DNA of 63,213 bases, the filler included, from an uncultured archaeon (GTDB taxonomy: Archaea; Nanobdellota; Nanobdellia; Woesearchaeales; CAIVOO01), in the NCBI GenBank assembly GCA_903842985.1. It is 7 parts of 7 records of this genome, joined end to end, with 100 filler letters (N's around TTAATTAATTAA, not from the genome) between each part and the next. Parts side by side here need not be neighbours in the genome. Positions count along the whole stretch, not along the records: positions 1 to 13,445 come from CAIMOB010000001.1; 6 more parts are not named here. One strand, 5' to 3'. Of the stretch, positions 9,001 to 12,000 are shown piece by piece. Positions within the stretch are counted from its first letter, which is position 1. Each line of letters begins with the position of its first letter. A program made the position numbers.

Positions 9001-12000
9001 TCTTCAGGAAGGACTCCGTTTGAAACGTCAATGAACTTCTTGAGCATCTTGCACAGATTGTATGCCTTGAACTGCCTTTCATTTATCTGCGTCCCGAGGT
9101 TCGGAAGCAGGAAGCGGTCTATGATTTCCTTCATCCTTTCAACCCTCACGTCCTTTGCCTGCGTTATCCCTATCTTCTTTGCAATGTAATCCATCGCATC
9201 CTCTTCTGTCTTCACGTCGGAAAACTCAGAGAGGTTGATTATTGCCTCGTCATACTGCTTGTCTGAGGAGATTGACCTCATTATCTCCTCATCCTTTGTC
9301 ATGCCGAGCGCCTTTATGATTATGATTAGCGGCACCCTCTTGACCCTTGTGAATGTCAGGTAGAAAATCCCGTCCTTCAGCCTCTCGAATGTGTGCGGTA
9401 TTTTGTACGCCTCCTTCTCGCAGAAAACCTTGCCTATGTACTCTGAAAGGCCTGTTGAAGTCTTTTCGACAAGGAACTTGTTCGGCGCCAAATCCTCTAC
9501 GCTGATAAGGACTTTCTCTGTACCGTTGATTATGAAATAGCCGCCTGGGTCGTCAGGATCCTCCTTCTGCTGGATTAGCTCTTCCCTTGAAATCTTGTAG
9601 AGGTTGCAGTATTTTGATTTCAGCATCACAGGTATGCTTCCTATCTGTGTTGTGAATGTCTCCCTCTGGATGCCGTTGATGTGCGAGGAAACCTCAATGA
9701 AGCACGGCGCGGCGTATGTCAGCTTCCTCAGCCTGGCCTCCATCGGATAGATTTTTCTCTTAGAGCCGTCCGCCTCTGTTATTTCAGGCTTCTGCACCCA
9801 GATCTTGTCAAGCTTTATCTTGAATTCATCGACGTTGTGCGGGATTATTGTAGGCTCTATGTCCTTGTTTTCAGCTATGATCTTGCTCAGCTCAACCTCG
9901 ATGAAGTTGTTAAATGATTCAATGTCTGCGTCAACCAGGCTTCTCTCTTCGAAGAACTTTTTAATCAGAATGCGCATCTTATCCATGCGTCACACTCCGG
10001 TAATACATTGACTCTCCCGCTGTCAGGCTTTTTCTTGCTATTTTGACGACATCTCCTTCCTTAGCATCAAGATGTGCAATTGCAGGATCAATGTCTAGAA
10101 TCTTTGGAAGCTCCTTTATTGTCAAATCATATTTCTTGAAAAGTTCCTGCTTCTCCTTTTCAGAAAGCTTGGTGTGCTTTGGGATTATGGTGTGTTTCTG
10201 TTCTTTTTCAGCCATGTTTACCCTCGATTGGAACGGGCCGGACGGGATTTTCAAGATTTGTTTTTGAACCCGCGACCACCTCATTAAAAGTGAGGTGCGC
10301 TAGCCAGACTGCGCTACCGGCCCAGTTTCAAAAACAGGGGAAGAGCCCTGGTGAGGGAAACCCCCGTTTTTGAGCGTAATTTTTATAAAAAAATACGCCC
10401 TGGCCGGGATTTTCAGAGTGATATTGAAAATATCCTTTTTGAACCCGGGTCGAAGCCGATCTGTAGTTCTTTTCAAATTTTTGAACTTCGACAGGGCTTC
10501 ATGATAGGCCACTACACCACCAGGGCTTATTTTTGGTTAATACATGCGAAATCTGTCTCCTTTTGCATAGATAAGGCTATTTTAAGACTTATTTAGCTAA
10601 GAAGGTAAGATTTTGCATACTTTTACTATAAAATTTTGTATTTATAAATATTTCGTTTTTAAATATAAAGAACAAAATAAAAAAGAACTAAAATCTTGTA
10701 TGGTCAGTTACTTAGAACTTCTTTCTTTTTGAGTAACATTCCCTGCAGTAGACTGGTTTTCCTTCTGTTGGCTTGAAAGGAACTTCGCATTCCTGCCCAC
10801 ATTCAGAGCACGTAGCCTTGTGCATTTCTCGCGGTCCGAAAGAATCTCTTCTGAATCCGCCTTTTCTGTCTTCTCTCATTTTTCGTTTCCTCCTAATACA
10901 TAAAAAAAGCCTTTAAGGCCTGGTTTATGTCTATTTTCACAGAGTTAATTGCACTCATTTATAAAGTTTATGCTAAGACTTCCACAGCCCATGTATATTG
11001 CAGTATGCCCTGGCTGCGATCTTTTTTGCCTCTATGCAGAATTCCGCCTCTGGCCTGTCTCCTAGCTTTAGGTGCTTCCTGTATATTCTTCCGTCTGCCA
11101 TTAGTTCTATGAAGTCTATATAGTGTTTCAGCTCCATTGGATGCGGGATAGAGCCGACTTTTACCCTGATTCCTGTGCTTGTTTTTTCAATTACAGGCAC
11201 GTGCTTCTCCTTAAGCTCATCTGCAATTGTCTTTTCTGCCAAAAGCTCCATTGGCTTGTCGCAGCAGACCAACTGCCCCATTCCCGGGTCAAGAACTTCA
11301 ACTATGTTCCCGCAGACATTGCACTTGTAAATTTGGTTTAGTTCAGTCATTCTTCTGCTAAGAATTCAGGATTTTATATATTTTGTTGTTTTTAACTGCT
11401 CGCTCTTGGCATTTGCAAGGACATAGTTCAGCGCAGAAGTGTAGGCAAAAAGCCTTTTTGCTGTCTCAATCGCTCTTTCCTTGTCCTTAACGCGGATGCT
11501 TTTGGTTAATTCGTCGTATTCATTCCAGTAATCTCCGAAATCCTGGAAAACATCCTTTGCCAGATTTGTTTCAGAGAAATTGCCTGCGTCAATTATCTCT
11601 TTTAAATCATTTCTTGCCTTAAGCCCGATTTCATGCGCCTTGTTTTTTGCCTGCCCCGCAAAGACCTCTGCTTCTTCGTAGTTGCCTGCATAGGCATTGT
11701 AGGCAGCCTGCGCAAGATGAATCATTGCATATTCCTCTGTGATTCTTTTCTGGCAGAATGTAATCATGCTTTTCATGAACTCTCTGTCGCTAAGATTCAT
11801 GAATTCATCGTAAATTTCAATTGCCGCTCTTCTTACTGCAATCCCTGAAATGCAGCAGCTGATGTCATGCGACGCGTTGTCTGCGTTTATCACAAGCTCA
11901 GTCGCTGTTTTAGGGTTTCTGCTTCCAAGATGGCTTTTTCTTGAATTGCATTCTTTTAGGATTTCCTCTTCGACATTTACAGTATTACTGCTCCCATAAT

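Follow-up and report, generated by a model that had tools for sequence, protein, structure and literature searches.

Our analysis of an uncultured Woesearchaeales archaeon (the source genome) leads us to lean slightly towards an explanation in two layers, in which ordinary tRNAs hidden by introns are accompanied by a candidate all-RNA, toxin-antitoxin-like module whose tRNA would, judging from its sequence, misinsert Ser. The window, that is, the whole stretch of DNA analyzed (63,213 nucleotides), contains the Asp-Lys pair of the first layer, and the gene that defines the second layer (C57-type, after its contig) lies elsewhere in the genome (Table 1). No description of a C57-type module was found in the open-access literature, with figures and most supplements outside the coverage.

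Table 1. Features of the source genome. Rows marked 'window' use window positions; all others give contig positions in the source genome (G000), outside window numbering
Feature	Location	Strand	Remarks
tRNA-Asp(GUC)	window 10396..10526	-	two introns; first of Asp-Lys tandem; rpoH-rpoB-rpoA' genes downstream
Asp canonical 37/38 intron, 30 nt	window 10459..10488	-	strict BHB, H 4/4, h' 5 bp
Asp T-loop intron, 59/60, 28 nt	window 10410..10437	-	relaxed hBH, H 4/4, no h'
tRNA-Lys(UUU)	window 10234..10323	-	one T-loop intron
Lys T-loop intron, 59/60, 15 nt	window 10248..10262	-	relaxed hBH, H 4/4, h' 1 bp
tRNA-Arg(CCU)	C41 12348..12453	+	two introns
Arg(CCU) intron 19/20, 16 nt	C41 12368-12383		placed by eye
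Arg(CCU) intron 59/60, 15 nt	C41 12425-12439		helix register
tRNA-Glu(UUC)	C46 8287..8410	+	one intron
Glu(UUC) intron 19/20, 49 nt	C46 8307-8355		HBh' type; geometry by eye
Ordinary tRNA-Ile(UAU)	C46 6501-6598		37/38 intron
tRNA-Leu(CAA)	C54 21383..21517	-	sole intron canonical 37/38, 51 nt
Supernumerary class II tRNA, UAU anticodon	C57 4525..4636	-	G73, G30:C40, long variable arm
C57 59/60 intron, 21 nt	C57 4539-4559	-	predicted to refold precursor
C57 leader	C57 about 4640-4648		pairs with nt 73 and trailer, 3-nt bulge left
BRE-TATA promoter pointing away from C57 tRNA	C57 4659..4674	+	13.8 bits; best sense-strand site -0.7 bits
Predicted antisense RNA, ~40 nt, 3' hairpin, T-tract	C57 4692..4743	+	complementarity starts at 4696
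EndA, single alpha-type, no L1/L2/L3 insert	C33 11318..11572 (C-terminal part)	-	N-terminal part at start of C29

When all 60 contigs of the source genome were scanned without any motif requirement and with introns allowed, 37 tRNA genes were obtained, with chance matches recognizable by broken stems. Full stems were found in Asp, Lys, Arg(CCU), Glu(UUC), Leu(CAA) and the C57 gene, all of which the preliminary description had listed, and the Asp and Lys genes were both present in the window as it had stated. Its claim that these genes escape standard callers holds for Asp and Lys (no tRNA call by ARAGORN within the window; only the 5' part of tRNA-Lys(UUU) aligned by Rfam, at 31.5 bits), but not for Leu(CAA), which ARAGORN -i detects, nor entirely for Glu(UUC), which the same program reports in muddled form. 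Leu(CAA) had also been listed among the genes with non-canonical introns, and its canonical intron was the only one found. The UAU anticodon of C57 is not otherwise missing, as had been proposed, because an ordinary Ile(UAU) gene is present; none of the ten anticodons absent from the set was regained by the scan of the 60 contigs, which made no separate search for split halves. The D-loop introns reported in Glu and Arg both fit position 19/20 by eye, and the additional 37/38 intron of Asp proved to be a strict bulge-helix-bulge (BHB) motif.

The T-loop introns had originally been placed at 58/59. In all four such introns of the source genome, the end of the intron forms 4/4 pairs with nucleotides 54-57, which gives site 59/60, whereas the 58/59 register (nucleotides 53-56 as the central helix) forms only 1-2 of 4 pairs in all cases from this genome and the family; on the basis of helix register, 58/59 was therefore rejected and 59/60 adopted. 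The C57 helix, previously counted as 3 bp, has 4/4 pairs including two G.U pairs. The four introns thus combine a 3-nt bulge with a preceding central helix of 4 bp (mean 3.87/4 in 61 family members), but the h' helix, for which strict BHB demands at least 2 bp, measured 0, 1, 1 and 2 bp in Asp, Lys, C57 and Arg, respectively, and three of the four introns have the relaxed hBH form. Removal of the introns gives a canonical cloverleaf, and their presence differs among kin. The Asp T-loop insert is indeed shared across the family (6/7 genomes, none found in G006; 16-34 nt in five relatives), with the 37/38 intron absent from three relatives, and the Lys insert varies as described, occurring in 4/7 genomes with an uninterrupted T-arm in G002 (G005 gave no clear reading).

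Novelty had been claimed for the site and for its conservation in one family. Introns at 59/60 have already been described in ARMAN-2 (PMC3239211), and a pattern search found the motif in at least 121 stretches from several archaeal groups, which rules out a family-specific site; such introns are known and widespread in DPANN. It should be noted that the pattern, which gave one bacterial chance match among the 80 matches listed, has the central helix built in and itself imposes it, and the search was therefore used for distribution only. Stretches titled 'Methanosarcinales', a title we distrust, carry the same Asp-Lys tandem as the source lineage. ARMAN-2 resembles the source genome in the site, in the relaxed motif, in the invisibility to standard callers and in having an Ile(UAU) tRNA without TiaS. 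Hidden D- and T-arm introns missed by annotators and gained repeatedly were also reported for Asgard genomes, whose EndA is mostly two-subunit (bioRxiv 10.64898/2026.10.13.758758); the main text of that study does not use the words DPANN or Nanoarchae-.

The source genome encodes both EndA and RtcB, and its lone EndA is without the loops considered a requirement for introns of this kind. In ARMAN-2, the enzyme is epsilon2 with ASL/L3 loops. The enzyme of the source genome is colinear with 1a79 and does not have the inserts of 3iey_A and 4fz2_A, and a 9-residue loop was found in 120/120 homologues. Broad specificity has been associated with (alpha beta)2, epsilon2 and loop-bearing alpha4 enzymes, and here neither a second subunit nor an L1/L2/L3 insert was observed: each of five genomes has one EndA, and searches for a second EndA or a beta subunit as partner found no match in the source genome or in the five genomes. 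On the other hand, its Arg and Trp align with R275 and W384 of ARMAN-2, the cation-pi pair (PMC12397907), and the Trp is present in 95/95 parsed C-termini of the 120 homologues. Geometry, presence or absence in kin, and the encoded EndA and RtcB uphold the view that relaxed BHB introns hide real tRNA genes. Asp, Lys, Arg(CCU) and Glu(UUC) appear to be ordinary essential tRNAs with relaxed-BHB introns at 59/60 and 19/20; the geometry is plain, and we infer that the single EndA very probably cuts these introns and RtcB joins the exons. Overall, the earlier observation of intron-hidden tRNA genes was confirmed in part, and its interpretation found partial support.

Its sequence marks the C57 gene as an extra class II tRNA that combines an N-A-N anticodon with the identity elements of tRNA-Ser. 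G73 and G30:C40 are reported as archaeal SerRS determinants, with LeuRS blocked by G73 in H. volcanii (PMC9976931). The C57 family comprises 83 distinct genes, kin members not being independent, and is represented in 31 or more of the 150 genomes sampled from the order. A35 was found in 62/62 parsed class II G73 non-Ser genes and in 21/21 further ones (19 parsed, 2 by eye), a uniformity that, like the nearly constant intron, carries some search bias because the search model had been built from intron-bearing members with A35 and because the census omitted 14 short matches. Such N-A-N anticodons correspond to Leu, Ile, Phe and Val codons. The same searches also brought up Ser genes with G73 (29) and Leu genes with A73 (38). 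G30:C40 occurs in 47/62 members and G37 in 38/62; the acceptor begins GCC or GGC as in Ser, whereas Leu differs, and the nearest ordinary body is Ser for 32 of 61 members, Leu for 24 and a tie for 5. The members are supernumerary in the source genome, which has the ordinary Ile(UAU), and in G113, where ordinary Ile(GAU), Ser and Leu accompany three GAU members; G079 has five members with differing anticodons. AUA codons align to Ile in 386/723 cases and to Ser in 1.5%, the same as AUU and AUC, which rules out reassignment of AUA to Ser and agrees with the earlier statement that AUA is read as Ile.

The suspicion that the class II UAU gene may be a pseudogene finds no support in view of a cloverleaf that covaries across the family (cloverleaf plus BHB 96% paired, two-sided change in 21/30 pairs) and of a dedicated antisense partner. 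The module was found by BLAST in 0/6 family relatives, and a 3'-half remnant was observed in L178. No shared protein neighbor, defence gene, Cas family or export gene or signal could be identified among 58 proteins flanking C57-type loci, no extra synthetase beyond one SerRS-sized PF00587 match per genome was found in five genomes, and one exact pattern, a weak test of viral carriage, gave zero IMG/VR matches.

Folding predictions, which ignore modifications, suggest that the 59/60 intron, present in 61/62 members, refolds the precursor out of a splicing-competent shape by pairing with the variable arm and T-stem. Median T-stem probability was 0.01 in C57-type precursors vs 0.85-0.91 in ordinary Ser and class I, and values below 0.1 were obtained for 38/61 C57-type precursors vs 0/17 Ser, 3/103 class I and 4/12 Leu. 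Real introns were more disruptive than shuffled ones in 46/61 C57-type precursors vs 1/17, and splicing in silico restored the T-stem (mean 0.83); 11/52 precursors retain it. The intron/variable-arm helix was 72% paired with modest covariation (9/500 shuffles, alignment A1). Misfolding is predicted for the spliced form as well, the D-loop pairing with the anticodon stem (93.6% paired; weak covariation, 25/500 shuffles, same alignment), and the median anticodon-stem probability of this form was 0.19 vs 0.77-0.92 in controls. In view of this predicted misfolding and the weak sense promoter, working tRNA may be rare or never made. A leader-trailer helix was predicted in 31/62 members, and G73 may be conserved for it instead of for SerRS.

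Upstream of the gene, a divergent antisense RNA complementary to the variable and anticodon arms of the C57 tRNA is predicted. An upstream copy of the own arm was found in 53/62 C57-type members vs 7/139 controls, with no copy within 170 nt in the other 9/62. Mismatches between arm and copy comprised 95 G.U-compatible vs 14 incompatible transitions, and in run X6 identical substitutions occurred in tRNA and copy at two positions. The antisense BRE-TATA had a median of 10.5 bits, compared with 8.7 for ordinary tRNA promoters and -0.5 on the sense side; its distance to the match was 29-31 nt in 36/53, and a T-tract followed on the antisense strand in 45/53 and on the opposite strand in 4. Openness of the seed region was 0.52 after splicing vs 0.31 before (n=52). 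Cognate specificity was 30/30, partly built in because the match itself served to define each antisense RNA. At four C57-type loci Rfam matched no family except tRNA, leaving the antisense RNA there without a known RNA family.

In the type I system hok/Sok, an inert primary transcript refolds after processing and is attacked by an antisense RNA against loops of the active form. The C57-type module can be likened to aapA1/IsoA1, reported to work in this way (PMC5416894), and shows at the sequence level a neighbor-specific small antisense RNA with its own strong promoter and terminator; in type I systems, however, the target RNA encodes a protein toxin, whereas here the target is a tRNA gene. 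Both partners are RNA, as in type VIII CreTA of Haloarcula, which is archaeal and acts on decoding, but CreT is described as sequestering a rare tRNA and CreA as repressing transcription via Cascade (PMC12737573). The predicted C57-type toxin would itself be a tRNA, its antitoxin would pair directly with that tRNA and not with a promoter, and the module is not nested in a CRISPR-Cas locus with a crRNA-like antitoxin. Bacterial allo-tRNAs, as reported, share the long variable arm, Ser identity, non-Ser anticodons (UAU and Leu prominent) and a suspected toxin-antitoxin link, but they have 8/4 or 9/3 acceptor branches and 35 anticodon kinds and lie near protein toxin-antitoxin genes (PMC5389517), whereas C57-type genes are archaeal, 7/5 (with covariation), A35 only, intron-locked by prediction and paired with a cognate antisense RNA. 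Nematode nev-tRNAs likewise join a class II body to a class I anticodon (including UAU) and are weakly expressed, but are eukaryotic, Leu-derived and leucylated, and the abstract mentions no antisense partner or lock (PMC3333845).

We propose a logic like that of aapA1/IsoA1, except that the tRNA would be the toxin and splicing the activating step. The weakly transcribed precursor would be an inert, antisense-resistant reservoir, from which slow refolding and EndA splicing would free tRNA; SerRS would charge it, and Ser would be inserted at hydrophobic codons (AUA in the source genome). Abundant antisense RNA would neutralize the tRNA by binding to its exposed variable loop and to its anticodon arm, and a halt in antisense synthesis, by module loss or by viral or stress transcription shut-off, would lead to proteome-wide Ser misincorporation and cell arrest. 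In yeast, Ser tRNAs carrying a GAA, GAU or UAA anticodon were reported to be highly toxic or lethal (PMC6125640), and E. coli was killed by allo-tRNAs of Ser identity that bear Leu anticodons (PMC5389517); the latter paper also reports that six variants of bacterial allo-tRNA(UAU) were inactive in E. coli translation, which counts against the proposed Ser insertion.

That inactivity would suit a non-translating, antisense-controlled tRNA-like regulator or decoy (a SerRS or elongation-factor sponge, anticodon-nuclease bait or non-ribosomal aminoacyl donor), whose working form may be the alternative fold: this fold is the predicted minimum for the precursor and, in many cases, after splicing as well, its D-loop/anticodon-stem helix is highly paired, and the sense promoter is weak. 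We regard this as unlikely, considering that it leaves unexplained both A35 in 83/83 genes while positions 34 and 36 vary and the compensatory upkeep of cloverleaf and BHB. Alternatively, the antisense RNA might be an activator, an RNA chaperone that unlocks the precursor for regulated, adaptive stress mistranslation instead of addiction or suicide. Cofolding raised T-stem probability by more than 0.1 in 21/52 cases, which only partly supports a general unlocker; the median reached just 0.12 (0.15 in the source genome), a duplex over the anticodon and variable arm would block charging and decoding, and the antisense promoter looks constitutive and stronger than that of the tRNA, so that we find this reading quite unlikely.

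Charging by Leu, or by Leu and Ser, would make A35 a synthetase signal and the hydrophobic substitutions mild. It would be in keeping with the G37 of many members, with those bodies nearest to Leu and with the reported leucylation of nev-tRNA(UAU) (PMC3333845), but appears improbable: the 38 true Leu genes carry A73 without exception, G73 is reported as an archaeal LeuRS antideterminant (PMC9976931) and thus argues against LeuRS charging, and mild swaps need neither lock nor antisense RNA. The patchy distribution, unrelated neighbors and 3'-half remnant might instead point to decaying tRNA duplicates or integration scars with the upstream copy as a duplication by-product, which is very hard to reconcile with compensatory changes in every stem, G.U-biased mismatches, fixed promoter spacing, the strand-specific T-tract and the concerted changes in X6. 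DPANN archaea live in symbiosis with host cells, and multi-copy sets with different anticodons per genome, such as the five in G079, could suggest a missense tRNA passed to the host as an RNA effector, the antisense RNA conferring self-immunity; without an export gene or signal near the modules, and with nothing to separate it from a cis-acting module, this seems highly improbable.

Hidden housekeeping introns by themselves are of modest interest, and the co-occurrence of a loop-less, single-subunit EndA with numerous relaxed introns puts the prevailing view of EndA specificity to the test. As for the toxin-antitoxin-like reading, we suggest, somewhat tentatively, that C57-type modules form a widespread, protein-free candidate class in DPANN, with a Ser-charged tRNA toxin at hydrophobic codons that is armed by splicing and checked by antisense RNA, and that may be an abortive-infection or addiction switch. 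If this is true, a tRNA itself would be the toxin of an RNA-only module, the tRNA intron would be a safety catch, giving a regulatory job to a feature of debated purpose, and programmed mistranslation would exist in archaea, in at least a fifth of the sampled genomes of a large order, invisible to annotation.

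The window consists of seven contigs with N spacers between them. The flagged tRNA pair lies on C1, the first of these, where tRNA-Asp(GUC) and tRNA-Lys(UUU) genes were indeed present and largely hidden from standard callers, as described. A position-profile scan, which was built on 20 uninterrupted tRNAs of this genome, allowed an insert anywhere and did not use the splice motif, recovered 37 tRNA genes with complete stems across all 60 contigs: 21 uninterrupted, 11 with a 37/38 intron only and five with non-canonical introns. The latter were Asp, Lys, Arg(CCU), Glu(UUC) and the C57 gene (the fourth with a T-loop intron), all five as proposed in the preliminary description; tRNA-Leu(CAA), also proposed there, has a 37/38 intron only. 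ARAGORN (-i) reported 34 genes, without Asp, Lys and Arg(CCU). No tRNA for Phe, Tyr, elongator Met, Leu(UAG), Leu(CAG), Ser(UGA), Pro(GGG), Pro(CGG), Arg(GCG) or Arg(CCG) was found in the 60 contigs (genome 92.65% complete), nor was a protein-only RNase P found in this genome. The genes at C4:20750-20820(-) and C56:8088-8158(-) are those of tRNA-Gly(UCC), whose T-loop is far off consensus, and of tRNA-His, in which position 55 is C. Some ordinary tRNA genes have their own 5' end duplicated upstream (five in one genome, G113: L310, L315, L321, L322 and L334; and tRNA-Gln(CUG) on our contig C43). These direct copies, 10-23 nt long and 76-153 nt upstream, may be integration scars or another antisense arrangement.

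Locations of the features discussed (window positions unless a contig or locus is named)
Feature	Location	Strand	Remark
tRNA-Asp(GUC)	10526-10396	-	In window; missed by ARAGORN
tRNA-Lys(UUU)	10323-10234	-	In window; missed by ARAGORN, half seen by Rfam
Short ORF	10711-10879	-	Two CxxC motifs; upstream of tRNA-Asp; paralogue-like match on C12
C57 gene	C57:4525-4636	-	Class II tRNA with T-loop intron
RNase P RNA	C13:6244-6544		
EndA gene, second part	C33:11318-11572		First part at the start of C29; the two contigs share 49 nt
Family gene L233 (G065:C15)	L233:64-150	+	Only intron-less member; UAU, G73, long arm; D-loop bacterial-looking; antisense copy absent
Family gene L178 (G290:C4)	L178: about 1500-1590		3' half only (variable arm, T-arm, intron); a remnant
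Family-like gene L058	L058:132-239	+	GAA anticodon, U73, weakened stems; possibly decaying

The splicing endonuclease EndA cuts after the second base in each 3-nt bulge, a rule that gives 37/38 for all 12 canonical introns of this genome. Because nt 54-57 form the central helix and put the last bulge base at nt 60, the introns sit at 59/60, the counterpart in the T-loop of 37/38, and not at 58/59 as first suggested: all four T-loop genes form 4/4 pairs in the 59/60 register and only 1-2/4 in the other, and eight genes of the family, retrieved by BLAST independently of the motif, form 3-4/4. The second outer helix (h') is absent from three of the four T-loop introns. The D-loop introns of Arg and Glu, placed by eye, fit 19/20 with G15-17a as helix. 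Intron presence differs among kin, in agreement with the earlier claim; in the relative G002 the Lys T-arm is intact and a 19/20 intron is present, and three relatives lack the Asp 37/38 intron. Across loci L028-L107 the Asp-Lys tandem recurs, introns having been gained or lost independently in either gene, and 19/20 introns are common among these archaea in genes for tRNA-Lys, tRNA-Ala and tRNA-Glu. The T-loop position itself is not novel. A 59/60 relaxed bulge-helix-bulge (hBH) intron is published for ARMAN-2 tRNA-Cys (PMC3239211), and a pattern scan of species genomes found the motif in at least 121 stretches, the titles among the matches listed naming Woesearchaeota, Nanoarchaeota, Aenigmarchaeota, Micrarchaeales, Nitrososphaerota and Hadarchaeum. 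Still-unfound disrupted tRNAs in DPANN had been predicted as well (PMC5829648). The intron layer of the housekeeping tRNAs is of a known kind, with positions corrected here.

In each of the seven family genomes EndA is a single alpha unit (the copies of our genome and of G004 being cut by contig ends), and five of five genomes have one EndA catalytic domain plus RtcB; a profile search found no second EndA subunit in our genome. Among named homologues, the closest come from Woesearchaeota and Nanoarchaeota. In alignment the enzyme runs colinear with 1a79, a strict alpha4 EndA, and has none of the inserts that N. equitans and ARMAN-2 carry ahead of the catalytic His, where 120 of 120 homologues have nine residues; it does possess the Arg/Trp pair of broad-specificity EndAs (PMC12397907). 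Loop-less EndAs failed in vitro to cut an ARMAN-2 59/60 hBH mini-helix (PMC5829648), yet the essential Asp and Lys genes, as their sequences read, need such a cut. The conflict with the loop model holds by the present alignment only, because that paper credits several alpha4 EndAs of DPANN with an L3 loop. In relatives the EndA gene is whole and divergent from RNase Z; a histone gene lies nearby in our genome, G001 and G004.

The C57 gene combines a long variable arm, G73, G30:C40 and a UAU anticodon. Its tRNA is spare, since a normal Ile(UAU) gene exists in the genome, TiaS is absent (from five of five genomes, this one included) and AUA codons align to Ile (386 of 723 columns); contrary to what had been supposed, it does not supply a missing anticodon. 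Reading of AUA as Ser was rejected (1.5% of columns). BLAST matches turned up in 26 of 401 genomes from the order, with none in the six family relatives. A covariance model trained on 20 members gave matches in 85 of 150 genomes, a figure that includes ordinary Ser and Leu genes; 133 of the 150 matches listed were read, eight more lie beyond these, and three from unpublished genomes and 14 short ones (84-86 nt) were left out. The unpublished genomes support none of the claims made here. Among the 315 parsed of 322 distinct collected tRNA genes, 185 were class I, 29 Ser (G73), 38 Leu (A73), one U73 and 62 class II G73 genes with other anticodons (GAA 14, GAU 13, UAU 9, UAA 8, GAG 5, CAG 5, CAA 3, UAG 3, AAU 1, GAC 1). 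A35 is present in all 62 members and in 21 of 21 further ones, four of them from three genomes outside the order and two read by eye. Of the 150 genomes, at least 31 carry a member, and these span 27 families; the overall tally is 47 genomes and 38 families. G079 has five, and G113 has three beside a normal Ile(GAU).

Of the 62 members, 61 have the 59/60 intron and none the 37/38 intron. In many members the 5' part of the intron is predicted to pair with nt 43 and the variable arm (72% paired; in 16 of 20 the gene's own partner beat those of other members), and the sequence of its 3' part imitates the T-stem's 5' strand; in others it pairs with nt 51-58. The predicted T-stem probability of the precursor has a median of 0.01 (below 0.1 in 38 of 61); among the controls the corresponding values are 0.91 in Ser (0 of 17), 0.85 in class I (3 of 103) and 0.29 in Leu genes (4 of 12). 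Once spliced, members average 0.83. Against shuffled introns, ordinary introns are predicted to favour the T-stem and members' introns to disfavour it. A leader-trailer helix including nt 73, with a 3-nt bulge left, was found in 31 of 62 members versus 8 of 249 others. Folding predictions thus suggest that the intron would lock the precursor, although the spliced form is often predicted to misfold too, which counts against this reading.

An upstream copy of the gene's own anticodon/variable arm was found in 53 of 62 members (nine lack it) versus 7 of 139 controls. The copies are 11 to about 40 nt long, some matching the 5' arm, and differ from the tRNA by 95 G>A or T>C, 14 A>G or C>T and 29 transversions, a bias that G.U pairing between the tRNA and the opposite strand would lead one to expect. 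With a profile trained on ordinary tRNA genes, an outward-facing promoter (median 10.5 bits) beats the sense side in 50 of 53 cases and lies 29-31 nt before the match in 36; further on, 45 of 53 have a T-tract on the antisense strand, compared with 4 on the opposite one. Anatomy, conservation, complementarity and these promoter and terminator signals are evident at the sequence level. The predicted antisense RNA, about 41 nt, leaves its 5' seed free to meet the variable loop and folds into a hairpin at the 3' end; in our genome its predicted binding is -50.6 kcal/mol to its own tRNA and -30.0 to the next. Predicted seed exposure is 0.52 spliced versus 0.31 before splicing. In run X6 a single 222-nt contig spans the module and shows 24 differences; the changes at C57:4576 and 4582 are mirrored in the antisense copy, at the corresponding positions 4696 and 4702. 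On either side of the modules lie unrelated housekeeping genes. All these figures come from related genomes and overstate independence. Class II G73 N-A-N genes with a 59/60 intron and no antisense copy (L225, L229, L236, L242, L262, L277, L298, L174; also L272, L279), several per genome in G049 and G115, may have a partner acting in trans.

Archaeal SerRS determinants are G73 and G30:C40, and G73 blocks LeuRS (PMC9976931), which points to probable charging with Ser; a rival is charging with Leu. The antisense RNA could be an activator, and it is predicted to open the lock in a minority of members only. The genes could also be decay products; family cloverleaf and BHB show strong covariation. 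Other readings take the RNA as non-translating and tRNA-like, or as exported to a host. We lean, if only slightly, towards a toxin-antitoxin-like module. Type I logic (PMC5416894) likewise has an inert precursor, processing and an antisense RNA against the active form; in its proposed working the module is like systems of types I and VIII, but it departs from each on a defining test. Similarly, the tRNA resembles allo-tRNAs, apart from one defining test, and nev-tRNAs, from which it is counted apart. Searches of the open-access literature showed no such module, and none is in the review PMC11415595 or in PMC4033280 and PMC12737573 as far as these were covered, although supplements could list single members. 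The module to which the fourth T-loop gene belongs appears to be of a new kind. In the toxin-antitoxin-like reading, the tRNA would be transcribed as an inert precursor that, on a putative trigger, would be processed to an active tRNA, whose toxicity the antisense RNA would relieve by targeting it. Engineered Ser tRNAs reading hydrophobic codons kill yeast (PMC6125640) and natural bacterial equivalents kill E. coli (PMC5389517); a Ser-charged tRNA decoding N-U-N codons would place Ser at buried hydrophobic residues.
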